A stretch of DNA of 64,000 nt from IMG/VR virus record IMGVR_UViG_3300044733_004754. One strand, given 5' to 3'. The translations under genes and the position numbers were made by a program. Positions 1,130 to 17,857 of this stretch are shown here, piece by piece. Every line of letters starts with the position of its first letter. The stretch's first letter is position 1. Under the pieces are notes generated by a model. That model had not been told where the DNA came from, did not search any database, and worked only from the letters and a program-made list of their open reading frames with translations. Source of the stretch: a virus.

Positions 1130-4100
1130 ATGGCAAGACCACTTAGAGCAAGATATGTTACAGCAAGTACAAGTGACGGTGTTCAGGAGATGTCGGATAG
1201 CGACATCAATGACCTTGTTATTCCTAGGATAACCAACTTATTTTACGCTGCATCAAATACATCTGGCTACGGTAACAAACTCGAACTAAGAACTACACCA
1301 CCAACTTGGAATTATGTTACTGGTGGGACTGTTCTTGATGTGTTTCCAACAGCTTTACCGCCCATCGGGACACATCCAGTAACTTCTTCGTCAACAACAT
1401 ACACGTTGTACCAAAATCTTGACACTGCATTGACAACAAACTTTGATCTTATAACCAAACCTGTTAAAACAGAGGCAAGTGGTGGTGTTCAAAAGATTCA
1501 ACAGTTTTCAAACAATGAAATCAGAGATGATATTCATAGTAAAGTTATTGCTGAAATATCTGTTGGGGCACAAGGAGCTTACTGGCTTGGAACTTCACCA
1601 CCAGGAACAGGTACGTGGATTGTTGTATCCTCAATAAACGATACTTTTGTTAACTCGACAAGCAATAGCACGCAAACAACCACATATAATTTGTATCAGC
1701 GCTCTACGAATAGTGGGTATGGTACAAAGAGGCCTTTAAAAGGTACAGCGAACGCTCTTACAGAGATGTCCGATGCTGAAATTGACACAATGACAGCGGC
1801 TATACGTGATTGTATTGCGGCTGGTATTGGTAGATATCAAATATCGACTACATCACCAACGCCTGGTACTTGGGTAGCTCGTGGTTCTTTCACAGATACA
1901 CAGAATGGTATAGAGGATCAATCATATTCCGGTAGTTACTTGGGTACTTTTACAGGTGCGTTCAGTGGCATTTATAATCAAGCATTCACAGGAGCTTATC
2001 AGGGACAGTTTAATCGGGCATTTACAGGTAACTTTATTGATACTTCTAAATTTACTGGTGCATTTGCAGGTGTGTATCAGCAAAATTTTACAGGTATCTA
2101 TTCACGTATTTTTACTCGTGATACAAACACCTCGTTTACGGGTGTTTATCAGAACACATATACAGGTAATTACACAGGTTTATTTGCGGGTGCATACTCA
2201 CAGGTATTCTCCGGTGGATATTTGGGAAGTTATCAAGGCTCTACTTTTACTGGCGGCTTCAACCAGACTTTTGCTGGTACGTATGTGGGAACATTTACAG
2301 GACCATATTCAGGAAATTTCCAGGGCGTAACATATTCAGGCGGATTCAATCAAAATTTTACTGGCGTATATGTAGGGGCGTTTTCAAGACCATATGCTGG
2401 GAACTTCCAAGGTATAACATATTCGGGTGGATATAATCAGACTTTTGCCGGTACGTATGTGGGAACATTCACGGGACCATATTCTGGTTCTTATCAGGGT
2501 ACAATATATCCTGGTGGGTATAATCAGACGTTTGCTGGAACATACAATCAAACGTTTACAGCTCAATACTCAGGGGATTTCCAGGGCGTAACATATTCAG
2601 GCGGTTACAATCAGACTTTCATAGGTGTATACGCAGGATCATTTTCAAGACCATATGCTGGGAATTTTCAAGGTATAACATATTCAGGTAGCTACAATCA
2701 AACCTTTGCCGGTACGTATAATCAAAGTTTTACCGGTGGATTTGTAAATAATTATGCCGGGACCTACTCACAGGCGTTCAGTGCCACGTACGCTGGTGGA
2801 TATGTTGGGGACTTTTCAAGAGCATATACAGGTTCATATCAGAACACATATTCAGGGGCATATGCAAATACGTGGTCTCGAATATTTTCAAGAGCGTGGA
2901 CGGGATCCTATACTGCTGCATATACGGGCGATTATACTGGTGCATATACGAAGGCCTTTGCGCGACTTTTCACAGGAACATATACAGGCGCTTGGATTGG
3001 TAACTACACACGTGGCTTTGTAGGCCTATATGGTTCAACATTCTCAAGAGGCTTCTCCTCCTTTTTCGTGGCCGCGTACACTTCAACGTATGCAGGAACT
3101 TATACAGGTAACTACACACGAGCTTTCACACCATCGTTTCAAGGATCGTATGCACTTCCTTCTGTAGGCTCCTACGATGGGGATTACATAGCAGGTGGAT
3201 TTACTGGGCCTTTCAACATCACGTATTATACAGGTACATATCAGGGCACATATAACAGCTTTTTCACGGGTACGTATGAAGGTGCTTTCTCACGTATATT
3301 TGCCGGTAGTTATGCTGGTACATACCAAGACCCCTATACAATAACATCATTTACGGGGCCATTTGCTGGTACAGGTTATTTTACAGGATCGTACGTTGGC
3401 AATTACCAAGGTAATTTTGGCGCTAGTTATCAAACGACATTCCAGGGATTTTATTCGGGTTTATATACGCAGGCCTTTTTGAGAGCGTGGACGAACGTAT
3501 TTGTATCAAGCTGGACATCACTGTATGCTGGTACATACTCAAGAGCATTTACAGGTGAATATCTCCAAAACTACATTGGATCGTATGAAGGAACATTCAG
3601 TAGAGAGTTCTCAGCCCCATATCAGGGATCATATGAGAATAGTTGGTCAAGAATATTTACTGGTGATTGGACGGGGGGTTTTAGTACTAATTACACTGGT
3701 GGGTATGTTAATTTTTGGACAGGGTCTTACACGAGTACATATTCCAGGGTTTTTTCGGGAGCTTATACTGGTGTAATTACATACACGGGTGGGTTTGTTG
3801 GGTTATATGCAAATACGTGGGCAGGCAGTTACACAGGACAATTTACTGGTGGCTATACTAGGGCGTTCACGGGTGACTATACGGCTACTTGGTCAGGATC
3901 CTATACCGGTGCGTACTCACAAAACTTTACCGGTTCGTATACAGGGACCTTTACTGGTGGATATACGGCTACGTGGACCGGTACCTACTCAAGAGTATTC
4001 ACAGGACAGTTTACAGGCGGATATACCGCGGTATTTACTGGTGCTTATACATCAACCTGGACAGGTTCATATGTAGGTTCATACTCACAAAACTTTTCTG

Positions 4101-4678
4101 GTAACTATGTAGGAACATTTACGGGTGCGTATACATCCACTTGGACAGGTTCTTACACCGGATCGTATTCACAAAACTTTACTGGTATATACACAGGCAC
4201 GTTCACAGGGGCATACACGGCTACGTGGACGGGTGTATATTCTGGTGCGTATTCACGAAATTTTACAGGCGCATATACGGGTACATTCAGCGGCAACTAC
4301 ACAGCTACCTTTGCTGGGACGTACACGGGCGGTTATACACGAGCATTTTCTGGTACATACGCTGGTAACTACACGGGCGGGTTTATTGGTCAGTGGACAG
4401 GAGTATACAGCCGTATATTCACTGGTTTATATACCGGCGCGTTCACAGGCGTTTTTATTGGTAACTTTACAGGTAGTTATGTTGGGACATATTCACGTAT
4501 ATTTACGGGTGCATATACTGGTTTGTTCACTGGCTCATATTCTGGAGCATATACGGGTGCTTTCAGTGGTAACTATGCTAATAATTTTACACGATTATTT
4601 ACAGGGGCATACTCGGGTCTAACCGTCACCGGTACAACGACGACGACTACATATACATTATGGGTTAGAACAGCTTGA
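1130..4678 (+). CDS. Giant Gly/aromatic tetrapeptide-repeat protein A (putative hairpin filament, 1182 aa)
   Basis: Three N-terminal RPL...QEMSDxxI modules, then about 900 aa of [YFW]-x-G-x repeats, ending YTLWVRTA. Paralogous to the next gene. Confidence 0.8.
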   Translation: MARPLRARYVTASTSDGVQEMSDSDINDLVIPRITNLFYAASNTSGYGNKLELRTTPPTWNYVTGGTVLDVFPTALPPIGTHPVTSSSTTYTLYQNLDTALTTNFDLITKPVKTEASGGVQKIQQFSNNEIRDDIHSKVIAEISVGAQGAYWLGTSPPGTGTWIVVSSINDTFVNSTSNSTQTTTYNLYQRSTNSGYGTKRPLKGTANALTEMSDAEIDTMTAAIRDCIAAGIGRYQISTTSPTPGTWVARGSFTDTQNGIEDQSYSGSYLGTFTGAFSGIYNQAFTGAYQGQFNRAFTGNFIDTSKFTGAFAGVYQQNFTGIYSRIFTRDTNTSFTGVYQNTYTGNYTGLFAGAYSQVFSGGYLGSYQGSTFTGGFNQTFAGTYVGTFTGPYSGNFQGVTYSGGFNQNFTGVYVGAFSRPYAGNFQGITYSGGYNQTFAGTYVGTFTGPYSGSYQGTIYPGGYNQTFAGTYNQTFTAQYSGDFQGVTYSGGYNQTFIGVYAGSFSRPYAGNFQGITYSGSYNQTFAGTYNQSFTGGFVNNYAGTYSQAFSATYAGGYVGDFSRAYTGSYQNTYSGAYANTWSRIFSRAWTGSYTAAYTGDYTGAYTKAFARLFTGTYTGAWIGNYTRGFVGLYGSTFSRGFSSFFVAAYTSTYAGTYTGNYTRAFTPSFQGSYALPSVGSYDGDYIAGGFTGPFNITYYTGTYQGTYNSFFTGTYEGAFSRIFAGSYAGTYQDPYTITSFTGPFAGTGYFTGSYVGNYQGNFGASYQTTFQGFYSGLYTQAFLRAWTNVFVSSWTSLYAGTYSRAFTGEYLQNYIGSYEGTFSREFSAPYQGSYENSWSRIFTGDWTGGFSTNYTGGYVNFWTGSYTSTYSRVFSGAYTGVITYTGGFVGLYANTWAGSYTGQFTGGYTRAFTGDYTATWSGSYTGAYSQNFTGSYTGTFTGGYTATWTGTYSRVFTGQFTGGYTAVFTGAYTSTWTGSYVGSYSQNFSGNYVGTFTGAYTSTWTGSYTGSYSQNFTGIYTGTFTGAYTATWTGVYSGAYSRNFTGAYTGTFSGNYTATFAGTYTGGYTRAFSGTYAGNYTGGFIGQWTGVYSRIFTGLYTGAFTGVFIGNFTGSYVGTYSRIFTGAYTGLFTGSYSGAYTGAFSGNYANNFTRLFTGAYSGLTVTGTTTTTTYTLWVRTA
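2246..2680 (+). repeat. 5 x 87-bp (29-aa) tandem repeat, outgoing arm of protein A
   Basis: Units like YSGGFNQNFTGVYVGAFSRPYAGNFQGIT start at 2246, 2333, 2420, 2507 and 2594. Confidence 0.8.
3878..4297 (+). repeat. 5 x 84-bp (28-aa) tandem repeat, returning arm of protein A
   Basis: Units like YTSTWTGSYTGSYSQNFTGIYTGTFTGA start at 3878, 3962, 4046, 4130 and 4214. Confidence 0.8.
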
Positions 4679-4684
4679 GAAAAA

Positions 4685-7600
4685 ATGCCACTTCGTCCGT
4701 TATACTATAATACATCGTTATCCGGATTACAGGAGATGTCCAATACGGACATCGATGGATATATTTCAAATGTAATAGGTTCTGATTTTGCTTCGACAGA
4801 AGATATTGGATCTCTCATCGTGCAGGATCCAGGTGATCCGGTTCCTGCAAATTCTACCTCCATTGGTACATGGGTTGATACACGCTACGATCAACAAATA
4901 GGTGACCATCCTGTTTCAGAAGCGAATCTTGTTTATTCAAACACAACCATTTATCAAAGATTGGGTGGTGGACCATTAACGGACCCTTCAATGGTACGAC
5001 CTATTTGCTGGAATGATACGCTTGATGGCGTACAGCAAATGGCGAATACGGATATTGACACAACCATTATTGCGAAGGCCGTTTCTTATATTGTCAATGG
5101 TGGTGTCGGTTCATATGTCCTGCAGCCGTCTGCACCAGTAACTGGTACGTGGGTTGTGAGAGGGCGATTGCAGAATACTGAACGTCCATACTTTGCCAAT
5201 GAAACATTTCTCTGGCAAAAAACGTCTGAAAGTCCAAGCGGCTCTATAAAGCCTTTGAAATGGAGTACTAATGCTTTACGTGAGATGTCAAATAACGACA
5301 TCAAAACCTTGACACATAGAGCAAGAAATTACATCGCCAATACAGGTATAGGCACCTATCAATTATCCACAACCACCCCGTCATCAGGCGGAACGTGGGT
5401 TGAGGCGGGTACGGGATTCAATGATACCCGTCAAGAAATAAGACCTCAAACTTATAATGCTCAAGTGTATACAGCAACTTTTTCTGGTGTATATACACGG
5501 GCTTTTGTTGGCAAGTATCAAGGTAGTTTTACTGGTTTGTATGGGATACCATACACACGTGAATTCACAGGTACATTCGCAGATACGTTTACCGGGGCTT
5601 TCAATCAGCAATTCACCGGAGCTTTTTCTAGCGGATATGCAACAACGTACACGGGTACGTTTAATCAGCAGTTCACTGGACAATTCACTGGCGCTTATAC
5701 TGGTGGTTATACAGGAACATTTACCGGTGCTTACACGGGCGGATATACAGGTGCATTCACTGGTGTATATTCGGCGCCTTATGTGGGTAGCTTCACTGGT
5801 GTATATGTAGGGACGTTTAATCAGCAGTTTACTGGCGCGTTCAGTGGTGTTTATCTAGGGACATATCAACAAAATTTCACTGGTGATTATGTTGGTGGCT
5901 TTACAGGTGCATTCAGCGGTGCTTATGCTCAAGCATTTACGGGTGCATATAGTTCAATCTTTACAGCAGCATATAGCGGTTCGTTTACAGGCCAGTTTTC
6001 GGGTTTATACACAGGCGCTTTCACGGGTGTATATGTAGGAAGTTACGTGGGGAAATTCACAGGCGCATATACGGCTATCTATAGTAGATTGTTTACAGGG
6101 GACTACACAGGTATTTATACTGGTGCATATAGTCAGAACTTCACCGGTGCCTTTACTGGTCAATTCAATCAAGTGTTTACAGGTACGTTCGCTGGTGGTT
6201 ATGCAGGAACGTTTAACCAAGTATTTACGGGCACATTTGCAGGTACTTACAGTAGCCTGTTCTCTGCAATATACACAGGCAACTACACTGGTATATACAG
6301 CCAAGCGTTTACAGGTGCATTCACGGGTATTTTTAATCAGGCTTTCACAGGTAACTTTGTTGGTAATTATGTTGGTAACTATCAGCAAACATTTACGGGA
6401 GCTTTTGCAGGAACATACAGCAGTTTATTCACGGGAAGCTACACAGGTAACTACACAGGATTATATAACCAAGTATTTACAGGAACGTTTGCTGGAACAT
6501 ATAGCCAAGTATTTTCGGGTAGCTATACCGGTAATTACACGGGATTATATAACCAAGTTTTTACAGGTACTTTTGCGGGAACATATAGTAGATTATTCAC
6601 AGGAAGCTATACAGGCAATTACACAGGCATATACAATCAAATATTCACAGGTACCTTCGCAGGCACTTACAGTAGATTATTCACGGGAAGCTATACAGGT
6701 AATTACACTGGCATATACAATCAAGTATTTACAGGTGCGTTTGTAGGAAATTATGCCGGGTCGTTTACTGGTTCGTTTGCTGGTGGATACACAGGTGCTT
6801 TTTCCGGTTCATACACAGGCGCTTACACAGGAATTTATGCAGGTTCATATGTAGGAAATTACCAGGGAAACTTTACTGGTTCATTTGCAGGAACATATAG
6901 TAGATTATTTATAGGTTCGTATTCGGGTGGGTACACACGTGCATTCACAGGAGCTTACACAGGAATTTATTCGGGCGGGTACGTAGGCTCCTTCACGGGT
7001 TTGTACTCCGGTGGGTATGTAGGTTCTTTCACAGGTATTTACTCAGGCGGATACACGAGAGCTTTCTCGGGATCATACACTGGATCATATACTGGAACAT
7101 ACGCCGGAACGTACACAGGTTTGTATTCAGGTGGGTATGTCGGATCGTTTACGGGCATATACTCAGGCGGATACACGAGGGCTTTCTCGGGATCATACAC
7201 TGGATCATATACTGGAACATACGCCGGAACGTATACAGGCATATATGCTGGTGGATATGTGGGGTATTTTACGGGCATATACTCAGGCGGATACACGAGA
7301 GCTTTCTCGGGATCATACACTGGATCATATACTGGAACATACGTAGGAACGTATACAGGCATATATGCTGGTGGGTATGTGGGGTATTTTACTGGAATAT
7401 ACTCTGGTGGGTATACAAGAGCTTTCTCAGGATCATATACTGGATCATATACTGGAACATACGCCGGAACGTATACGGGTTTGTATTCAGGTGGTTATGT
7501 CGGATACTTTACAGGCATATATTCAGGTGGTTATGTTGGATACTTTACAGGAATATATGGTGGCACGTACAGTAGGTTATTCACAGGTGCCTACGCGGGT

Positions 7601-10600
7601 GGATATATTGGGTACTTCACAGGAATATATGGCGGTACGTATAGTAGATTATTCACAGGCGCCTACGCGGGTGGGTATGTTGGTTACTTTACAGGAATAT
7701 ATGGTGGTACATATAGTAGATTATTTACAGGTACATACTCTGGAAGTTATCAAGGCAATTTCACGGGGCTCTATTCAGGTACATATAGTAGATTATTTAC
7801 TGGCAGCTATACAGGATTATATTCCGGAAACTTTCAGGGTAACTTTACAGGTGCTTTTGCTGGTACGTATAGTCGATTGTTTACGGGTTTATATACAGGA
7901 TCATACTCTCGTGGGTTCACGCGGGTCTTCATCGGGACTTATCAAAGAGGGTTCATAGGGTCATATGCAGGTAGCTTCAATAATACATTCACACCAACAT
8001 TTGCTGGAGCTTACGCTCGGGCCTTTATTGGAGTTTATGCAGGATCGTACCAAAACCCATTCACTGGAATATATTTCACTGGTTATTACACTGGTTTTTA
8101 CATTAATTTTTTTACAGGAACTTATCAGGGAGCGTTCACGCGTTTGTTCACAGGGGCATATACAGGCGTTTATCAAGATCCTTACGTCATTTTAACTTTT
8201 ACGGGGCCATTTGCTGGTCCAGGTTTTTTCGCGGGTACCTATGGGGGTTCTTATGTAGGTGTGTTTGGCGCCTCATATAGTAGGCTATTTACAGGCTTTT
8301 ATTCAGGATCATATACTGGTGATTTTACGGGAGCGTTTGCTCGGGTGTTCACAGCAACATGGACAGGGTCCTATGCAGGATCTTATCAAGGCAACTTTAC
8401 AGGAAGTTTTGCGGGTACGTATAGTAGATTGTTTACTGGGCAGTATTCTGGCGCTTATGCAGGATCCTATCAGGGTAACTTCACAGGTACTTTTGCTGGT
8501 ACGTATAGTAGATTATTTACGGGTACGTACTCGGGCAACTACCAAGGCAACTTCTCCGGGATATATGCAGGATCATATGCACAGACGTTTACTGGAATAT
8601 ACTCCGGCAATTACCAAGGCAACTTTTCCGGAACATATGCGGGTGCATATGCACAGACTTTCACAGGAATATATTCCGGCAATTATCAAGGCAACTTCTC
8701 AGGAACATATGCAGGAGCATATGCACAAACATTTACAGGTGCATATGCAGGGGCATATGCTCAAACATTTACAGGTACTTACGCAGGCGGATATACAGGC
8801 TATTATTCTGGCGCCTATGCTGGTACATATTCGGGTGCATTCAATCAAACATTTACAGGTGCATATGCAGGGGCATATGCTCAAACATTTACAGGTACTT
8901 ACGCAGGCGGATATACAGGCTATTATTCTGGGGCATATGCTGGAACGTATTCGGGCTCATTTAACCAGACATTTACGGGTGCATTTGCAGGGGCATATGC
9001 TCAAACATTTACAGGTACTTACGCAGGCGGATATACAGGCTATTATTCTGGCGCTTATGCTGGTACATACTCAGGAGCATTTAACCAGACATTTACAGGT
9101 GCATTCGCCGGTGTATATCAACAAACCTTTACGGGTACGTATTCAGGTGGATATATTGGATACTATTCTGGCGCTTATGCTGGTACATACTCAGGAGCAT
9201 TTAACCAGACATTTACAGGTGCATTCGCTGGTGTATATCAACAAACATTTACCGGTTCTTACTCGGGTACATATCAGCAAACGTTTACAGGTGGGTATGC
9301 AGGGACATATTCAGGGTCTTATAATCAGACATTTACAGGCGCTTTTTTAGGTAGTTATGAAAGTTCTTTCACTGGATTTTATTCAGGTGCCTATAGTAGA
9401 TTATTCACTGGTAGCTACACAGGTGCGTATACTGGAATATATGTGGGTTCCTATGTTGGTACATTTAATCAAACATTTACGGGTAGTTTTGCAGGCACAT
9501 ATTCAAGAGTATTTTCGGGATTATATTCCGGTGGCTACACGGGTGCATTTACTGGAATATATGCCGGTGCTTATGTTGGCAACTTCCAAGGCAATTTCAC
9601 AGGTAACTACTCTGGTGGCTACACAGGTGCATTTACTGGAATATATGCTGGTGCTTATGTTGGCAACTTCCAAGGCAACTTCACAGGAAATTATTCAGGT
9701 GGATATACAGGAACATTTTCGGGAATATATGCTGGTAGTTATGTAGGAGGGTATCAGGGCAACTTCACAGGAAATTATTCAGGCGGATATACCGGCACAT
9801 TTACTGGTGTATATGCAGGCGCTTATGTTGGAAGCTATCAAGGGAATTTCACTGGAAGTTTTATTGGTGGCTACACACGTGTGTTCTCGGGCACATATTC
9901 CGGTGTATATACGGGTGTTTACACAGGTCAATTTACAGGGATATACTCAACGTTATTTACAGGTGCATTCAGTGGGATATACGCAGGCGGATATGGTGGG
10001 AGTTTTCTAGGAAACTTCTCAGGGCTGTATTCGGGCGGATACACAGGAGCGTTTACAGGTATTTACACAGGTATCTACACAGGTGGGTATACTGGCACCT
10101 TTACTGGAGCATACTCAACACAGTTTACAGGTACATTTACAGGTGGATATGCAGGCACGTATGCCGGTGCCTACCAAGGCAACTTCACAGGCGTGTTCCA
10201 AGGTACGTACCAACAATCATTTACAGGTAATTACACCGGCATATACAGCCAAGCATTTAGTGGTACATATAACCAAGCATTCACAAGAAACTTTACTTTT
10301 GATTATACCGGTACGTTTTCGGGACCATATGTAGGATTTTTCACTGGAAGTTATTCACAAGTCTTCAGTAGATTTTTTACAGGATCATATACGGGTCAGT
10401 TCACAGGCGCTTATTCGGGCATATACAGTCAAGCCTTTACAGGTGCGTTCTCTGGCAATTATACAGGTATCTACAGTCAAGCATTCACAGGTGCTTACAC
10501 GGGTATATTCAATCAAACATTCACTGGCGATTTCGTAGGAAAATTTAATCAAACCTTCAGCGGTATTTTCATTGGTTCCTATAATCAACAATTCACTGGT

Positions 10601-11113
10601 GCTTTTAGTGGTGGGTATACGGCGGTGTATACTGGCGCTTACAGTCAAGCCTTTACTGGTACATTCAGCGGCATTTATACTGGTCAGTTTTCTGGTGCGT
10701 ACACGGGAGCATTTGGTTCATTGTTTACAGGAGTATACAGCCGTATATTCACTGGATCTTATTCGAGCGCATTCACAGGCCAGTTTAACCAATCGCCTGT
10801 TTACACGAGCGTGTATTCAAGACCATATGCTGGCGTGTATGGTCAGACGTTTAGTAGTACGACATATCCAGGTGCGTTTTATGCACAAGCGTTTACAGGA
10901 GAGTACACAGGATCGTATACAGGAACCTCTATCTTTGGGTTCACAAGTAGTTTTTCTAAAGCATTTACTAGTTTGTTAGGTTCTTTTTCATCGTTATTTA
11001 CAGGACTATATACTAACATAACAGGGCAATATCTAGCAGCTTGGTCGGGGTTGACAATAATGTCAACGCCGGAAACAATTCAAACACTTAAACTTTGGGT
11101 ACGAACAGCATGA
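4685..11113 (+). CDS. Giant Gly/aromatic tetrapeptide-repeat protein B (putative hairpin filament, 2142 aa)
   Basis: Same architecture as protein A: three RPL...QEMSNxDI modules, about 1860 aa of [YF]-x-G-x repeats, the central YQDPY...FTGPFAG motif and a C-terminal LKLWVRTA. Confidence 0.8.
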   Translation: MPLRPLYYNTSLSGLQEMSNTDIDGYISNVIGSDFASTEDIGSLIVQDPGDPVPANSTSIGTWVDTRYDQQIGDHPVSEANLVYSNTTIYQRLGGGPLTDPSMVRPICWNDTLDGVQQMANTDIDTTIIAKAVSYIVNGGVGSYVLQPSAPVTGTWVVRGRLQNTERPYFANETFLWQKTSESPSGSIKPLKWSTNALREMSNNDIKTLTHRARNYIANTGIGTYQLSTTTPSSGGTWVEAGTGFNDTRQEIRPQTYNAQVYTATFSGVYTRAFVGKYQGSFTGLYGIPYTREFTGTFADTFTGAFNQQFTGAFSSGYATTYTGTFNQQFTGQFTGAYTGGYTGTFTGAYTGGYTGAFTGVYSAPYVGSFTGVYVGTFNQQFTGAFSGVYLGTYQQNFTGDYVGGFTGAFSGAYAQAFTGAYSSIFTAAYSGSFTGQFSGLYTGAFTGVYVGSYVGKFTGAYTAIYSRLFTGDYTGIYTGAYSQNFTGAFTGQFNQVFTGTFAGGYAGTFNQVFTGTFAGTYSSLFSAIYTGNYTGIYSQAFTGAFTGIFNQAFTGNFVGNYVGNYQQTFTGAFAGTYSSLFTGSYTGNYTGLYNQVFTGTFAGTYSQVFSGSYTGNYTGLYNQVFTGTFAGTYSRLFTGSYTGNYTGIYNQIFTGTFAGTYSRLFTGSYTGNYTGIYNQVFTGAFVGNYAGSFTGSFAGGYTGAFSGSYTGAYTGIYAGSYVGNYQGNFTGSFAGTYSRLFIGSYSGGYTRAFTGAYTGIYSGGYVGSFTGLYSGGYVGSFTGIYSGGYTRAFSGSYTGSYTGTYAGTYTGLYSGGYVGSFTGIYSGGYTRAFSGSYTGSYTGTYAGTYTGIYAGGYVGYFTGIYSGGYTRAFSGSYTGSYTGTYVGTYTGIYAGGYVGYFTGIYSGGYTRAFSGSYTGSYTGTYAGTYTGLYSGGYVGYFTGIYSGGYVGYFTGIYGGTYSRLFTGAYAGGYIGYFTGIYGGTYSRLFTGAYAGGYVGYFTGIYGGTYSRLFTGTYSGSYQGNFTGLYSGTYSRLFTGSYTGLYSGNFQGNFTGAFAGTYSRLFTGLYTGSYSRGFTRVFIGTYQRGFIGSYAGSFNNTFTPTFAGAYARAFIGVYAGSYQNPFTGIYFTGYYTGFYINFFTGTYQGAFTRLFTGAYTGVYQDPYVILTFTGPFAGPGFFAGTYGGSYVGVFGASYSRLFTGFYSGSYTGDFTGAFARVFTATWTGSYAGSYQGNFTGSFAGTYSRLFTGQYSGAYAGSYQGNFTGTFAGTYSRLFTGTYSGNYQGNFSGIYAGSYAQTFTGIYSGNYQGNFSGTYAGAYAQTFTGIYSGNYQGNFSGTYAGAYAQTFTGAYAGAYAQTFTGTYAGGYTGYYSGAYAGTYSGAFNQTFTGAYAGAYAQTFTGTYAGGYTGYYSGAYAGTYSGSFNQTFTGAFAGAYAQTFTGTYAGGYTGYYSGAYAGTYSGAFNQTFTGAFAGVYQQTFTGTYSGGYIGYYSGAYAGTYSGAFNQTFTGAFAGVYQQTFTGSYSGTYQQTFTGGYAGTYSGSYNQTFTGAFLGSYESSFTGFYSGAYSRLFTGSYTGAYTGIYVGSYVGTFNQTFTGSFAGTYSRVFSGLYSGGYTGAFTGIYAGAYVGNFQGNFTGNYSGGYTGAFTGIYAGAYVGNFQGNFTGNYSGGYTGTFSGIYAGSYVGGYQGNFTGNYSGGYTGTFTGVYAGAYVGSYQGNFTGSFIGGYTRVFSGTYSGVYTGVYTGQFTGIYSTLFTGAFSGIYAGGYGGSFLGNFSGLYSGGYTGAFTGIYTGIYTGGYTGTFTGAYSTQFTGTFTGGYAGTYAGAYQGNFTGVFQGTYQQSFTGNYTGIYSQAFSGTYNQAFTRNFTFDYTGTFSGPYVGFFTGSYSQVFSRFFTGSYTGQFTGAYSGIYSQAFTGAFSGNYTGIYSQAFTGAYTGIFNQTFTGDFVGKFNQTFSGIFIGSYNQQFTGAFSGGYTAVYTGAYSQAFTGTFSGIYTGQFSGAYTGAFGSLFTGVYSRIFTGSYSSAFTGQFNQSPVYTSVYSRPYAGVYGQTFSSTTYPGAFYAQAFTGEYTGSYTGTSIFGFTSSFSKAFTSLLGSFSSLFTGLYTNITGQYLAAWSGLTIMSTPETIQTLKLWVRTA
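6416..6751 (+). repeat. 4 x 84-bp (28-aa) tandem repeat, left arm of protein B
   Basis: YSRLFTGSYTGNYTGIYNQVFTGTFAGT-type units start at 6416, 6500, 6584 and 6668. Confidence 0.85.
7052..7531 (+). repeat. 4 x 120-bp (40-aa) tandem repeat, left arm of protein B
   Basis: Near-identical DNA recurs at 7081, 7201, 7321 and 7441 (tggatcatatactggaacatacg). Confidence 0.9.
7532..7747 (+). repeat. 3 x 72-bp (24-aa) tandem repeat, left arm of protein B
   Basis: YVGYFTGIYGGTYSRLFTGAYAGG units start at 7532, 7604 and 7676. Confidence 0.85.
8528..8743 (+). repeat. 3 x 72-bp (24-aa) tandem repeat, right arm of protein B
   Basis: YSGNYQGNFSGTYAGAYAQTFTGI units start at 8528, 8600 and 8672. Confidence 0.85.
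8744..9223 (+). repeat. 4 x 120-bp (40-aa) tandem repeat, right arm of protein B
   Basis: Near-identical DNA recurs at 8761, 8881 and 9001 (tcaaacatttacaggtacttacgcaggcgg), with a more diverged copy at 9121. Confidence 0.9.
9524..9859 (+). repeat. 4 x 84-bp (28-aa) tandem repeat, right arm of protein B
   Basis: YSGGYTGAFTGIYAGAYVGNFQGNFTGN units start at 9524, 9608, 9692 and 9776. Confidence 0.85.
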
Positions 11114-11553
11114 AACGAACTATTGTAAATCCGCATTGGGTAAACAATGCAAGAACAGTTATCTCTGCTGAATTTCATTATGATGACGGTAGGGTAGCGC
11201 AGGCAACGATTTCCGAGTCGGATGTTACTAATCCAGACCTTGTTGAAATTAAATCAAAATTTACGGACGAGCAACTTGAAGCTAACACGCGTAAAAAAAT
11301 TCAAGAGATCAATGCCGAGCGTGAGCGTAAGCATCAGGAAGAATTGGCTAAGGCTCAACGAAAACAACAAGAAGAATTGTTTGCAGCTAAGCTAAGAATT
11401 TTTGAGATCGACGCCATTAAAGAATCAGATAATCGAGTGCTCAAAGCAAAGATAAGAAAGTCAAAGAGTGATGTTGAGGCTATGGCGTGGGCCTCGGCTT
11501 TGTTGCTTGATATAGCCCAAAAGGAAATAGCAACAAATTCAACGGCGGAGTAA
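11110..11553 (+). CDS. Hypothetical protein, possible fibre assembly chaperone
   Basis: The ATG at 11110 overlaps the stop of protein B (ATGA coupling). It has a beta-like N-terminus and a charged helical C-terminal half. Confidence 0.55.
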   Translation: MKRTIVNPHWVNNARTVISAEFHYDDGRVAQATISESDVTNPDLVEIKSKFTDEQLEANTRKKIQEINAERERKHQEELAKAQRKQQEELFAAKLRIFEIDAIKESDNRVLKAKIRKSKSDVEAMAWASALLLDIAQKEIATNSTAE

Positions 11554-11555
11554 AA

Positions 11556-12290
11556 ATGAATATTCGTAATGGTTTTTTAATTGTTGCATCACAACTCAAA
11601 GAGTATCTAGATTCGGCAAATTATCTGGCGAGTAGTATAAAAGACTACTATCCCGAAGCACACATCACTCTTTTTGTAACTCCAAAGCTAGAGCAATATG
11701 CTGACCGCAGTGCCTTTGATCTAGTTATATCTGAGGATGTTCCGAACCATGTGCGTACAAAGTTGTACGCTCTCTCCAGAACACCATACACTGAGCTTAC
11801 TGTTTATGTTGATGCAGATATGGAGTGCATGCACTCTGATGTCTCGAATATTTGGGATGAAATGCCTGAGGATTGTGACCTCCTGATTACAAAAATACGT
11901 CCCTATAACGGTAAAGAGGATCGTTGGCCGGGAGGTGCGACGATACCTCAAGGCCGTATGATATATCATGGTGGTTTTTTTATGTACAGATCAAACCCAC
12001 AAACACTTGAGTTTATGCGTAGGTGGTGGGAGGATTATAAATTACAAAGAAGTGAACCATGGCCTTATCCTGAAGAAGAGTGTAGGAAGTCCTTTGCTCA
12101 ATGGGATCAATTTACTTTTTGGAAACTTTTAGCTGTTGACAAGCTAGATGTTAAGGTAGGTGTTTTTGATGATGATGCAAGATGGAATTTTGTAAATGGT
12201 TATTATCCAAAAGAAGCCAAAAAAGAGATCGTTTTTTGGCACCACACTATTCCTTCTAAGCACGAAAATATAGGGATCAAAGCTAAATGA
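11556..12290 (+). CDS. GT-A fold glycosyltransferase (GT8-like / nucleotide-diphospho-sugar transferase)
   Basis: YVDADM DxD motif, followed by HGGFF and WDQFTFW motifs typical of GT8/GT77-like enzymes. Confidence 0.7.
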   Translation: MNIRNGFLIVASQLKEYLDSANYLASSIKDYYPEAHITLFVTPKLEQYADRSAFDLVISEDVPNHVRTKLYALSRTPYTELTVYVDADMECMHSDVSNIWDEMPEDCDLLITKIRPYNGKEDRWPGGATIPQGRMIYHGGFFMYRSNPQTLEFMRRWWEDYKLQRSEPWPYPEEECRKSFAQWDQFTFWKLLAVDKLDVKVGVFDDDARWNFVNGYYPKEAKKEIVFWHHTIPSKHENIGIKAK

Positions 12291-12919
12291 AAGAAATTCA
12301 AATAAACAATAAAGAACTTAAACAAATTTTAAATGATTGGTTAGAGGTTCTTTTGAGAGCAGATCGTTCGAAATATCCCTATCAAGCAGGCGTGGGTAAA
12401 ACTGGATTAGTGACTCCAGAGTATGCATGTAGTATGGAATACTTGCAACACATGCAAAGTAAAAAAGTAGACGGATTCCCAGAAACAACACATGGTGTTG
12501 ATCTAATGAGGTTTCGACCACCACACCAATCCCTTGCCGACGCTTTGGTAAAGCTAGACTACGATCTACTCAATTGGTCTGGATCGCGCAACAATGCGGT
12601 TAAGATGCTCTATCCTAAAGGCGGGTATATGGGCTGGCATCATAATGCAAACGCGCCCGGTTATAACATTCTTTTATCATGGTCTGAAAAAGGTACAGGT
12701 TTCTTTCGTTACCAAGATCCAATAACAAAAGAGATTGTCACGATGCAGGACACGCCTGGGTGGACGTGTAAAGTTGGATATTATGGACCATGGCATGAGC
12801 CGGATCGAATCTACTGGCACTGCGCAAGCGCACATGAAGAAGAGCGGGTAACGCTAGGGTATATCATTCCTCATGAAGGGATGTGGAATAATATGTGCGA
12901 TGATATTCAGTCAGCGTAA
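12287..12919 (+). CDS. Cupin / 2OG-Fe(II) oxygenase-like protein
   Basis: YPKGGYMGWHHN...YWHCA...RVTLGY fits a double-stranded beta-helix metal-binding pattern. Confidence 0.55.
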   Translation: MKEIQINNKELKQILNDWLEVLLRADRSKYPYQAGVGKTGLVTPEYACSMEYLQHMQSKKVDGFPETTHGVDLMRFRPPHQSLADALVKLDYDLLNWSGSRNNAVKMLYPKGGYMGWHHNANAPGYNILLSWSEKGTGFFRYQDPITKEIVTMQDTPGWTCKVGYYGPWHEPDRIYWHCASAHEEERVTLGYIIPHEGMWNNMCDDIQSA

Positions 12920-13647
12920 TATTTTCTAAAGAAGTGTTCGTAGTGTTTGGGTAGGGTTGGACCGTTAAAAAGTATCACAGGTATTTTTTTAACGGTCTCA
13001 ACAAACTTACTTTCTCTATATGCTTTTTGGACTGGGTCGTACAACGCATTCTCTTCAATGTCTACGCCGTAAAGAAAAGAATAAAATTTTCTTGTTGGAA
13101 AATATCCAATATTCACGTTGATATTTTCTTTCTCATAAAACAAAAAAGAGTCCATACCCCATCTATATTTGTTCATAAATGATTCAGGATCTCTAGATAC
13201 AAACTCCCAAATTTTTTGTGGTTTGTTTTCTTGCCACGTCATGCAACTACTGTTAAACGGATGGTGAAATATTGGGAAACCATAGTCCCATTTTGGTCTC
13301 CACTCTGCTTCAATTAGTGTTAGCTCATTATGATTAAAAGCAGTGATGTCGTTAATGTCGTGTTTAATGACAACATCGAGATCAAAAAAAATACGATCAC
13401 CAGTTGGTAGTTGATCGTTTACTTGCTCACTGAACAGAAACATCTTATTGTAGACGACGATATCAAACTCGTTTTCAACATATTCAATGATATTGATACC
13501 ATGTGAAATCCCTTCGGGATTGTCCGTGTAGCAGAACATCTTGAATGGTCTTGCTATGTTCTTGCGGCACATCCTAAATAAGTTATTGACCATAGAGCTA
13601 GGGTATTTCGTACCAACTTTAACACATAAAATAGTGAGCATTTCCAT
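12907..13647 (-). CDS. Glycosyltransferase (GT-A fold)
   Basis: CVKVGTKY N-terminus, FCYTD, FFDLDVVI (DxD) and NSSCMTW motifs. Confidence 0.7.
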   Translation of the reverse strand: MEMLTILCVKVGTKYPSSMVNNLFRMCRKNIARPFKMFCYTDNPEGISHGINIIEYVENEFDIVVYNKMFLFSEQVNDQLPTGDRIFFDLDVVIKHDINDITAFNHNELTLIEAEWRPKWDYGFPIFHHPFNSSCMTWQENKPQKIWEFVSRDPESFMNKYRWGMDSFLFYEKENINVNIGYFPTRKFYSFLYGVDIEENALYDPVQKAYRESKFVETVKKIPVILFNGPTLPKHYEHFFRKYYAD

Positions 13648-14291: not shown

Positions 14292-14618
14292 ATGGCCATA
14301 AAAGCAAATTTGATAATTGATCAAGGGACAGATTATCAAACAGATATAACACTTACGGACCTTGATGATAATGTTGTTAACTTGTCCGGGTATACAGCTA
14401 ATGCCCAGATAAGAAAGTCATACACTTCGTCAAACGCTGTCAGTTTTTCTGTAACGCTTGGTGAAAATACTGGTATTGTGACGTTATCGTTAACCGATAC
14501 ACAAACAGCCAATATCACACCTGGAAGGTATTTGTATGATGTTCTCTTAACATCAAACAATATAACATCGAGAATTGTAGAAGGTATAGTTACCGTAACG
14601 CCAGGAGTAACGAGATGA
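14292..14618 (+). CDS. Small Ig-like virion structural protein
   Basis: NLIIDQGTD...LSGYTANAQIRKSY...GRYLYDV...RIVEG, a beta-sandwich family common in T4-like phages. Confidence 0.65.
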   Translation: MAIKANLIIDQGTDYQTDITLTDLDDNVVNLSGYTANAQIRKSYTSSNAVSFSVTLGENTGIVTLSLTDTQTANITPGRYLYDVLLTSNNITSRIVEGIVTVTPGVTR

Positions 14619-14839: not shown

Positions 14840-16765
14840 ATGGCAAATTTAATTCAAATTAAACGAAGTGAAACGACAGCAATACCAACTTCACTGGAAG
14901 ACGGCGAGTTAGCCTATACTAGTAATGGTGAAGTACTATTTATTGGTAGCAATGGTGTCGTTATTCCTATTGGTGGTCAACGGGTTCCTGGTGTTTTAAC
15001 GGCTAACCAAGCTCTTGTTGTTAACTCTTCAAGTTCTATTGACTCTATCAAGGTCGCAAACCTTGTACCGACAAAGATTTATGCAAATGGTTCCCATGGT
15101 AGTGTGGGCCAGGTTCTTGTGTCTGATGGTGCAAATGTGTTTTGGGGTACAGGCACAGCTGGCACTAATACAACCATTCAGTTTAACGACTCTGGTACAG
15201 CAAACGGTATTGCAGCATTTACGTTTAATAAAGATACGAATACAATGTTTGTATCTGGCGCTATTACTGTTGGCTCAAATGTCATTACAAATACTTCTAC
15301 TATTAGTATCGGTAACAGTACAGTTAACACGACCGCCAATTCGTCTGAGCTTCGTGTAAATGGTACTATAGTTAATAGTTCTATTGTCCAGGTTGCTGGA
15401 CAATTCCGAGGCTATACAGCTAACGTCAGTACAAGTATTGAAGTTGGTTCAAATGTGTTTGTCAACACATCGACTATATCCGTTGGTAATTCAACAGTCA
15501 ACACGCAGATAACCGGTTCACGTATACTGGTTGGTGGTGCCGATGATAGTTCCAATGTCACTTCAGGTGCGGTTGTTATTGATGGTGGTTTAGGTGTTGG
15601 TAAGAGAATAAACACAAAAGAACTAGCTGTTGGTAACACAACTGTTTATTCGTCTGCAAATGGTACGACAATTGTAACACAAGACGTGTTAGCAACAGGT
15701 ACTGTGAATGCGACAGTTTTGAGTGTCGGCGGTTCGGTTGTAGGTAACAACAGCGGTATCTTTACATCAGGTGTTGTCAACGGTGATATTGTCCAGGTCG
15801 GTTCTAACTTTAGAGCCAACACAACACAAACATCTGTTGGAACGTTCTTAACTGTTGCTGGTAATGCAGTTGTTAATGGTCAGCTCACAGTTAACAACAC
15901 AGCTGCTCTTGGTAACACAACCATCACCGGTTTTGCAAATGTTTCAACATCGTTGAATGTAACTGGTGCAGCAACAGTCAATGGTGCCTTGACGGTTAAC
16001 AACACAGCGGCTGTTGGTAACACAACAATAACAGGTTCGTTAGGCACAACAGGTGCAGCAACAGTCAATGGTGCGTTTACTGTTAACAATACAGCAAGTG
16101 TTGGTAATACAACAATCACAGGCTCGGCTAATGTAACAGGTCACCTACAAGCTAATTCTTTGAGTGTTGGTGACACAACAATCAGTGGTAACCTAACCGT
16201 TACAGGCACACTTACAACCGTCAGTGCCAATAATATCAGCATCACCGATTCAATGATCCAGCTGGCATCTAACAATACAACAACAGATGTGCTGGACATC
16301 GGTTTGTTTGGTAGTTATGAAGCCGGTGATAGTGGTAACCATGAACATACTGGTTTCTTCAGAGATGCAAGTGATTCGGGTGTTTGGAAACTGTTCGAGG
16401 GACTAGAAGTCTCCCCTACCACAACCGTCGATACAGGTAATAATACTTTTGAATTTGCAACGTTGCAAACATTCTTGAAAACGGGTGGTGCAGGTTTAAC
16501 AGGTTTAATAGCAAACTCAACAACTATTGCTTTAACTGCAAACAGTACATTGAATGTTGCGATCGTTGCTAACACATTGACACTATCAACAGCTCTTGCT
16601 GGTAATTCTGGTGGTACTGGTCTTGCAAGTTATACAGCTGAAGATATCCTTGTTGCAAACAGCACAAATGGCTTTAGAAAACTTGCACTGGGTACAGCAG
16701 GTCATGTATTACAAAGTAATGGTACAGCATTGATTTATTCAACATTGGACGGTGGTTCGTTCTAA
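14840..16765 (+). CDS. Tail fibre-like protein
   Basis: N-terminal IQIKRS...GELAY attachment module, Asn/Thr/Val-rich beta repeats (LTVNNTAAxGNTTITG) and a C-terminal LDGGSF. Confidence 0.7.
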   Translation: MANLIQIKRSETTAIPTSLEDGELAYTSNGEVLFIGSNGVVIPIGGQRVPGVLTANQALVVNSSSSIDSIKVANLVPTKIYANGSHGSVGQVLVSDGANVFWGTGTAGTNTTIQFNDSGTANGIAAFTFNKDTNTMFVSGAITVGSNVITNTSTISIGNSTVNTTANSSELRVNGTIVNSSIVQVAGQFRGYTANVSTSIEVGSNVFVNTSTISVGNSTVNTQITGSRILVGGADDSSNVTSGAVVIDGGLGVGKRINTKELAVGNTTVYSSANGTTIVTQDVLATGTVNATVLSVGGSVVGNNSGIFTSGVVNGDIVQVGSNFRANTTQTSVGTFLTVAGNAVVNGQLTVNNTAALGNTTITGFANVSTSLNVTGAATVNGALTVNNTAAVGNTTITGSLGTTGAATVNGAFTVNNTASVGNTTITGSANVTGHLQANSLSVGDTTISGNLTVTGTLTTVSANNISITDSMIQLASNNTTTDVLDIGLFGSYEAGDSGNHEHTGFFRDASDSGVWKLFEGLEVSPTTTVDTGNNTFEFATLQTFLKTGGAGLTGLIANSTTIALTANSTLNVAIVANTLTLSTALAGNSGGTGLASYTAEDILVANSTNGFRKLALGTAGHVLQSNGTALIYSTLDGGSF

Positions 16766-17167: not shown

Positions 17168-17857
17168 ATGTCACAAATCATTCAAGTTAAACGAACAGAC
17201 GTTGCCGGTCGTACACCAAATACGACAAATGTTGCTAATGATCAGTACATTTATGAAGGGGAATTGGCCCTCAACATGGCCGATAGGAGACTTTTTACCT
17301 CCAACGGATCTGTAGTTATCGAGGTCGGTGCAAATTTAACCAGCTTAAATGTCGTGGGTGGTACAACTGTTAATGGTACACTTACCATCAACAATACTGC
17401 AAGTATCGGGAACACAACTATTACTGGTTTTGCTAATGTATTGAGCAACTCATCTGTTGGTTTACGAGTATCAAGAAGTGATTTTGGTTCCCAATACATT
17501 GATATCAAGTCATATTCAACCGGACATTTATTAACATTTCAAGCTGCATCTACTAACCCAAAATCTGTTTACTTTAATATAGATGTTAATGGTAACACAG
17601 CTGCTGATACCCGTTACCTGCTTCAAATTGACAGTGTTGAAAAGTTTAAAGTTAATTCATCCATAGTAGCAGTCAATAATGATTTAACGGTTACTGGTTT
17701 TGCTAATGTAACATCTGCAATACAAGTCGGTTCTATGTTCGTTGCAAATAGTACGATGGTGAAAATAACAAGTGACGATAAGTTAACATTCAATAATGGC
17801 ACAACACAGAACACCGCGTTCCGTGTGTATAACGAGAGTGGTACACGTATAGCCTAA
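17168..17857 (+). CDS. Short tail fibre-like protein
   Basis: IIQVKRT...GELALN N-terminal module like that of the 14840 gene, a shared NNTASIGNTTITGFANV repeat and C-terminal FRVYNESGTRIA. Confidence 0.65.
   Translation: MSQIIQVKRTDVAGRTPNTTNVANDQYIYEGELALNMADRRLFTSNGSVVIEVGANLTSLNVVGGTTVNGTLTINNTASIGNTTITGFANVLSNSSVGLRVSRSDFGSQYIDIKSYSTGHLLTFQAASTNPKSVYFNIDVNGNTAADTRYLLQIDSVEKFKVNSSIVAVNNDLTVTGFANVTSAIQVGSMFVANSTMVKITSDDKLTFNNGTTQNTAFRVYNESGTRIA

Follow-up and report, generated by a model that had tools for sequence, protein, structure and literature searches.

Why should the tandem repeats of a single protein be laid out as a palindrome, and what kind of fold could preserve such an arrangement? 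This question is raised by a 64,000-nucleotide (nt) stretch of viral DNA, IMG/VR record IMGVR_UViG_3300044733_004754 (hereafter the window), which comes from an uncultured T4-like myovirus and carries a very long open reading frame (ORF), the probable fibre gene B, together with its shorter paralog A (Table 1). A preliminary description of B, made from the nucleotide sequence without database searches, had reported three pairs of repeat blocks mirrored about one axis and had proposed that the two halves of the protein pair antiparallel and in register. Following up this proposal, we find it probable, at roughly three chances in four, that B is a giant fold-back hairpin fibre, in which the chain would run out, turn and come back as a very long two-stranded ribbon that was lengthened by paired duplications.

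Mirrored repeat blocks in protein B

The tetrapeptide [YF]-x-G-x makes up nearly all of B from about amino acid (aa) 259 to aa 2039, and a single tetrapeptide phase holds 444 of the 497 aromatic residues and 345 of the 424 Gly residues. With borders set by phase-tracking Viterbi, this tract divides into a left and a right arm, separated by a tip with a homologous counterpart in paralog A. The composition of the arms is extreme: across their 1733 residues, G accounts for 22%, Y and F together for 26% and T for 15%, and His, Cys and Met are absent. The whole of B contains two His residues and no HxH motif. Gly recurs with a spacing of four, and the collagen-like or polyglycine-II pattern, with Gly at every third residue, was not found in B.

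Tandem Repeats Finder (TRF) was run on the DNA without input from the preliminary description, and repeats were called separately at the protein level. Both callers recovered the mirrored architecture that had been proposed, with 28-, 40- and 24-aa blocks in the left arm answered by 24-, 40- and 28-aa blocks in the right, and the symmetry, whose loss under objective repeat calling would have told against the proposal, persists. The block boundaries originally placed by eye proved correct to a few tetrapeptides, and the original copy numbers were close, except that the 40-aa arrays hold about 4.4-4.5 copies each where four had been counted. A fourth mirrored pair, consisting of a 28-aa unit repeated twice in each arm, emerged at a looser threshold of the caller. 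The block order reads 28/40/24/28 on the left and 28/24/40/28 on the right, a palindrome with near-equal copy numbers.

Three independent estimates of the symmetry axis agree: the block boundaries, whose sums range from 2294 to 2308, place it at aa 1147-1154, the midpoint of the in-phase arms lies at aa 1149 and the centre of the tip at aa 1154.5. The residue-level register described below gives aa 1151 (nt 8135-8137), matching closely the axis first drawn at nt 8137/8138. When the three right-arm blocks were placed at random, the mirror fit was reached by chance in 174 of 2,000,000 placements (p = 8.7e-5), a test in which the axis was fixed at the tip centre and the matching of periods and copy numbers was left out of the count. 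DNA inverted repeats or palindromes were found neither between the paired blocks nor between the arms of B, in agreement with what had been stated for the blocks at the outset. Paralog A has a mirror arrangement of its own, in which five units of 29 aa (aa 372-516) are answered by five of 28 aa (aa 917-1056) across an axis at aa 714-717, with the centre of its tip at 717.5.

Table 1. Coordinates of fibre gene B, its parts and the adjoining genes in the window
Feature	Position (nt)	Strand	Description	Source
Paralog A	1130..4678	+	1182 aa, same architecture as B	
Fibre gene B	4685-11113	+	open ORF, 2142 aa	
Base	4685..5458	+	aa 1-258; three tandem homologous modules, module 3 without its last strand	module alignment
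Left arm (putatively outgoing)	5459..8074	+	aa 259-1130; 872 aa, 218 [YF]-x-G-x units in one phase	Viterbi
Left 28-aa (84-nt) array	6404..6749	+	~4.1 copies	TRF; protein caller aa 584-680
Left 40-aa (120-nt) array	6998..7527	+	~4.4 copies	TRF; protein caller aa 771-950
Left 24-aa (72-nt) array	7526..7732	+	~2.9 copies	TRF; protein caller aa 952-1016
Left 28-aa x2 block	7751..7918	+	aa 1023-1078	protein caller
Tip	8075..8218	+	aa 1131-1178; 48 aa, out of phase, QDPY and FTGPFAG motifs	Viterbi
Right arm (putatively returning)	8219..10801	+	aa 1179-2039; 861 aa, phase as in left arm	Viterbi
Right 28-aa x2 block	8372..8536	+	aa 1230-1284	protein caller
Right 24-aa (72-nt) array	8528..8739	+	~2.9 copies	TRF; protein caller aa 1282-1352
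Right 40-aa (120-nt) array	8729..9262	+	~4.4 copies	TRF; protein caller aa 1348-1524
Right 28-aa (84-nt) array	9524..9881	+	~4.3 copies	TRF; protein caller aa 1614-1724
Irregular stretch adjoining base	10802..11053	+	aa 2040-2123; 84 aa	Viterbi
C-terminal strand completing base module 3	11054..11113	+	ends LKLWVRTA, plus stop codon	module alignment
Three small genes after B	11095..12919	+	152, 244 and 210 aa; same order in phage C48C1	

A single cross-arm register and closure of the chain

When the order of Phe and Tyr in the left arm was reversed and compared with that in the right arm, a single offset matched (r = 0.53, 77% identity over 214 units), while the remaining offsets had a mean of 0.02 with a standard deviation of 0.12 and the best direct orientation reached 0.21. 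With the tandem blocks left out, the correlation was r = 0.40 and the offset was unchanged. This register corresponds to an index sum of 2300 in 0-based counting, that is, residue i stands opposite residue 2302-i in 1-based counting. At this register a pairing rule holds between the arms: Tyr lies opposite Gly 233 times (p = 9e-27), and of the non-Gly residues at position 3, 85 oppose Phe and 9 oppose Tyr. Second to this register comes a periodic echo at p = 4e-9, and without the tandem blocks the rule is recovered at this register only (p = 2e-7). For Gln and Arg at position 3 of B, 70 of 72 residues lie opposite Phe, with one opposite Trp and one opposite Tyr. Nine homologs from different clusters share the rule at the equivalent register (P0053, P0042, P0051, P0080, P0047, P0039, P0054, P0065 and P0050; p from 7e-3 to 1e-6).

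Read from the register, this pairing would bring aromatic rings opposite Gly on one face of a ribbon with antiparallel strands. Such an aromatic ring across from Gly on an antiparallel neighbour strand is known as 'aromatic rescue of glycine'. The second face of the arms is rich in Thr, Ser and Ala.

A very different explanation would make the tract a disordered or elastomeric Gly/Tyr-rich low-complexity linker, with its symmetry arising incidentally from replication slippage or from errors in the assembly. The extreme composition of the arms would suit such a linker, but the period of four continues unslipped through 872 and then 861 residues, the mirror rule is specific to one register and the same architecture is present in hundreds of independent assemblies. 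Slippage would also have to produce equal insertions 1-3 kb apart, which is beyond its reach, in paired blocks that share no DNA inverted repeats. We consider this explanation highly improbable and give it very little credence.

In addition to the register, the ends of the tract constrain the path of the chain. In B, in paralog A and in a short homolog, the extreme C-terminus aligns with the closing strands of base modules 1 and 2, and in B it contains the closing-strand motif [YW]-V-[RK]-x-A, which is conserved among homologs. The arm tract is inserted before the last strand of base module 3, and its two ends must therefore meet.

To model a complete member of the family we used AlphaFold2 (AF2) with a 57-sequence alignment of the homolog P0064 (383 aa). 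The base was predicted at a local distance difference test score (pLDDT) above 90 and the C-terminal strand at 85-96, and two very long strands, residues 233-301 and 304-381, were broken only by one mirrored pair of breaks. P0064 is thus predicted to fold as a base with one long hairpin. The top Foldseek matches of this model were the hairpin stems of aerolysin, lysenin and anthrax-type pores, all of them weak (E 0.04-1). The modelled base, including residue 383, aligned with pseudo-threefold beta-prism domains (MABP and the Plu-MACPF C-terminal domain) at VIA-align Z scores of 6.8, 6.8 and 6.3, with root-mean-square deviations of 3.7-3.9 A over 114-120 residues; these scores fall in the tool's middling range, and the likeness to a pseudo-threefold beta prism is suggestive only. 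Prediction of a complex between two mirrored non-tandem segments of B (aa 300-440 and 1864-2004) returned no answer (score 0.00), which we take as evidence neither way.

In the hairpin fibre that we favour, the three-module base would anchor B to the virion. The chain would exit the base before the last strand of module 3, run outward for about 870 residues as [YF]-x-G-x, turn in the conserved 48-residue tip, return over about 860 residues and re-enter the base as its final strand. The arms would pair as antiparallel beta strands in the fixed register of i opposite 2302-i, with one face formed by the aromatic and position-3 residues, where Tyr would oppose Gly and the Gln or Arg that replaces Gly would oppose Phe, and with the other face small and polar (Thr, Ser and Ala). 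An insertion in one arm would be retained only if an equal insertion arose at the mirror position: since the register is read residue by residue, a lone insertion would be lost, and the palindromic 28/40/24/28 block pattern would be produced. Both the beta-ribbon geometry and the pairing within a single chain are what we infer from these data. By arithmetic (861-872 residues at 0.33-0.34 nm each), B would extend up to ~285-295 nm if straight, and paralog A ~145 nm. The in-register antiparallel pairing first proposed for the arms draws support from the residue rule at a single offset, from the closure of the tract within a base module and from the hairpin model of the short homolog, as well as from the equal arm lengths, exactly equal length steps and mirrored repeats of independent homologs described below.

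The in-register pairing could instead take place between chains, either as strand-swapped hairpins in a dimer or trimer or as a multi-stranded tube resembling the six-stranded gp37 needle of phage T4. Symmetry and rule constrain residue i with residue 2302-i regardless of which chain supplies the partner; moreover, known phage fibres are usually trimers, the T4 gp37 needle being a trimer of fold-back chains, and an oligomer would bury the aromatic face as well. The base, however, carries three tandem modules in one chain and has a weak pseudo-threefold beta-prism likeness, which suggests a monomer filling a three-fold site, and in the monomer AF2 model the C-terminal strand closes its own module 3 with good pLDDT. 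We therefore regard pairing between chains as unlikely.

Arm lengths and repeats among homologs

In a collection at 90% identity the family was represented by 37 long and 350 short matches, and a phmmer search with the base (aa 1-258) found 333 clusters at 50% identity with E <= 1e-3, a minimum for the family, of which 193 reached E <= 1e-10; the best matches had E values of 1e-88 to 1e-59. Family members range from ~300 to 2661 aa, and a base, two arms and a closing strand are present in every full-length member. Some relatives carry non-repeat inserts of 350-750 aa at the turn. Pfam returned no family for the turn inserts of P0004, P0007, P0014, P0009, P0028 and P0002; a lectin-like domain in the P0004 insert, an impression formed by eye, was left unconfirmed by this search.

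Because the two longest runs of a protein both scale with its total length, a correlation between them is partly trivial, and we instead compared arms defined by motifs, locating the tip from its conserved motif and the base end from the third GTW motif and using symmetry in neither. Among 34 homologs of 308-645 aa, the second arm equals 1.01 times the first plus 6.0 (r = 0.97). At twelve distinct arm lengths, spanning 65 to 155 aa, the difference is exactly +6, and adjacent lengths are often only 2-4 residues apart. Of nine proteins representing clusters at 50% identity, eight show exactly this difference. Matched arm lengths among the relatives include 45, 49, 53, 65, 69, 73, 81, 85, 87 and 89 aa.

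Mirrored repeats were likewise found in homologs. A 20-aa unit is present in 6.5 copies on one side of P0120 and 6.0 on the other, a 12-aa unit in 4.8 and 4.5 copies in P0047, and P0046 has mirrored tandem repeats as well. P0092 has four 22-aa units per side, and a two-residue phase shift in one arm lies opposite one in the other. The segment-length lists of the homologs are palindromic. Mirrored tandem blocks are absent from the 3347-aa relative in phage C48C1, and the mirrored tandem blocks together with the Phe-Gln/Arg rule are specific to B. We also noted a group of proteins of 1280-1815 aa (P0010-P0037) with a weak Baseplate_wedge (PF23786) match at the N-terminus, a [YF]xGx-like tract of 250-500 aa and a large C-terminal region. 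No mirror signal was present at full overlap in this group, which was not counted in the family; the [YF]xGx repeat may be used one-way in other fibre proteins.

These length data bear on a further possibility, namely that each arm forms a local beta-solenoid or meander, that the resulting rods are independent or simply adjacent, and that the palindrome merely reflects a need for equal total length. When AF2 was run without an alignment on aa 950-1353 of B, it built 18-residue strands with a turn every 24 residues within the 24-aa blocks, and the weak Foldseek matches were only to solenoids, such as Ag43, CsgA and ice-binding proteins. This model is of low confidence, however, and AF2 with an alignment yields a hairpin. 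A solenoid would be expected to change in whole-coil steps, whereas the arms of relatives shift by 2-4 residues and do so equally in both arms. The tandem periods of 12, 20, 22, 24, 28 and 40 share no common coil length, those of B (24, 28 and 40) having only the factor 4 in common, and a single linear register over ~860 residues would not be expected from the packing of one rod against another. A solenoid is in our view clearly improbable.

Several observations weigh against the hairpin fibre. Arms are unequal in 4 of 22 distinct arm-length pairs, for example 127/111 in P0106, and the mirror-coherence of phase shifts, compared with shuffled segment order, is significant in 8 of 28 clusters, a supportive test, though one of little power wherever two long runs predominate. 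The 84 residues at aa 2040-2123 of B, which contain Pro, have no partner in the left arm. In paralog A, units of 29 aa are matched with units of 28 aa, and the register at residue level is ambiguous when followed segment by segment. The distal half of the hairpin in the P0064 model has pLDDT below 50. AF2 without an alignment gave a low-confidence model of aa 950-1353 of B (pLDDT 61), for which Foldseek returned weak beta-solenoid matches only (E >= 0.14, template modelling score <= 0.28); we judged this model uninformative because of its low confidence. Neither an experimental structure nor virion proteomics exists for any family member, and we know of no precedent for a bare two-stranded ribbon of ~290 nm.

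Some of these departures may be interpreted further. Close relatives of P0106 (P0112-P0117) have arms of 105/111, and P0106 carries in arm 1 a single 22-aa unit that has no partner; such a protein could represent an intermediate stage of paired duplication. The expectation, set out in the preliminary description, that indels should come in pairs of equal length is mostly borne out by the matched steps that prevail in the family, the unpaired indels in those 4 of 22 pairs being the exception. In paralog A, the extra residue per unit in one strand would correspond to a classic beta bulge. The irregular stretch at aa 2040-2123 is lacking in paralog A.

Genomic setting, related designs and implications

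The window encodes homologs of T4 gp13, 14, 15, 17, 18, 19, 20, 22, 23, 41, 43 and 46, and no cultured phage has a major head protein more than 70% identical to the one encoded here. Genes A and B lie upstream of the gp13 homolog and adjoin tail-fibre-like and fibre-assembly-chaperone-like ORFs, the B gene being upstream of the homologs of gp13, 14, 15, 17, 18, 19, 20, 22 and 23. The single relative of B in the phage collection, a 3347-aa hypothetical protein of phage C48C1 (Kyanoviridae), also sits among tail-fibre and chaperone genes. Because of this gene order, we take B to be a fibre associated with the tail or baseplate that would reach far from the virion and contact the host at its turn, an assignment drawn from gene order only.

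The three small genes that follow B are 31%, 36% and 32% identical to those that follow the C48C1 relative (L002 10139-12019), in the same order. The 152-aa product looks helical, the 244-aa product has a weak match to Nucleotid_trans, a nucleotide-sugar-transferase family, and the 210-aa product contains the motif GWHxNANAPGxN. They are candidate partners of B and may serve to assemble its Thr/Ser-rich face or to modify it.

Upstream of paralog A, a plus-strand ORF at 1-1128, open at its 5' end, contains a 36-nt tandem repeat (34-175). It matches bactofilin below threshold and PHROGs of phage structural proteins weakly, and its product is probably another fibre-like structural protein, cut by the edge of the window. 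The ORF at 12907-13647, the sole one of any size on the minus strand of the structural block, overlaps its plus-strand neighbours at their ends and has a weak PHROG glycosyltransferase match (4e-9). On the plus strand, a 108-aa ORF (14292-14618) matches 'L-shaped tail fiber protein assembly' families and a 229-aa ORF (17168-17857) matches distal subunits of long tail fibres in their N-terminal portion, with a 641-aa ORF (14840-16765) between them.

Among known fibres, the T4 gp37 needle comes closest in topology. In its structure (PDB 2XGF) the chain runs distally, turns and returns as antiparallel beta strands. A gp37-type chain thus turns at its distal end, so that the receptor-binding part lies at the fold-back point. 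The needle shares with B an out-and-back chain and a distal element at the turn, features that in B we deduce from closure, register and the homolog model. It is a trimer in which seven irons are bound by His-x-His motifs (PMC6957217). In contrast to this short, three-chain, iron-held needle, B lacks HxH motifs and has arms of ~860-870 residues on a single-chain, three-module base; B also differs in its strict tetrapeptide repeat and has no detectable relation to any Pfam or PHROG fibre family. Pore toxins and collars (aerolysin, lysenin, anthrax protective antigen, iota Ib and the phi29 lower collar) likewise extend very long two-stranded hairpins from a globular domain, but these hairpins have strands of 30-60 residues each and are stable only within barrels of several subunits; the matches to them are not significant and homology is not implied.

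Other comparisons concern how such a ribbon might hold together. Aromatic rescue of glycine and tryptophan-zipper hairpins were reportedly described by Merkel and Regan in 1998 and by Cochran in 2001. As in B, a ring would lie opposite Gly, and ladders of aromatic residues across the strands keep a hairpin stable although it has no conventional core; those cases, however, are isolated pairs or designed peptides of 12-16 residues, whereas B is a natural repeat with ~215 units per strand. To our knowledge, the rule of Phe with Gln or Arg has been described for no aromatic-rescue or tryptophan-zipper hairpin. Pentapeptide-repeat and beta-solenoid proteins resemble B in having a short period and one inward hydrophobic residue per unit, with no other sequence features; they differ in their fixed coil and local contacts, where the B family has steps of 2-4 residues in both arms and implied long-range anti-diagonal contacts. 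The concept of aromatic rescue of glycine is also used in bioRxiv 10.1101/2020.10.22.346965. By analogy, RNA stems are formed by distant segments that are read in opposite directions, obey a pairing rule and keep insertions only if these are matched. Unlike RNA stems, the B family is protein, its rule is Tyr-Gly, Phe-Gly and Phe-Gln,Arg, and compensation in it takes place through entire tandem duplications.

The B family matched neither a Pfam or PHROG model nor a named ESM-Atlas cluster, and our literature searches, which covered phage fibres with tetrapeptide repeats, fibres built as two-stranded ribbons, the repeat motifs and long fibres of cyanophages, brought up nothing of relevance; no match to the fibre design of B was found in the literature and databases searched. 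We see an even chance that B represents an undescribed fold, a single-chain two-stranded beta ribbon of ~865 residue pairs and up to ~290 nm, whose register would be coded by its residues and whose length would change through mirrored duplications.

As such a ribbon, B would be the longest beta hairpin known, up to twice the length of the T4 long tail fibre, and the protein counterpart of an RNA stem. If the hairpin fibre is correct, it would embody a building principle new to phage fibres and to proteins at large, a self-registering, core-less beta ribbon with its length dialled in four-residue steps, and would lend itself to the design of nanomaterial scaffolds. A single sequence would then reveal compensatory evolution between parts of a protein that lie far apart. 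Some B-family genes are among the largest in their phage genomes, and the hairpin fibre would account for a family of several hundred structural proteins, so far uncharacterised, in T4-like phages that abound in aquatic habitats. By adding paired tetrapeptides, these phages would tune their reach from ~10 nm to ~290 nm, and a very long, thin fibre would widen the capture radius of the virion, which would be relevant to finding scarce hosts.

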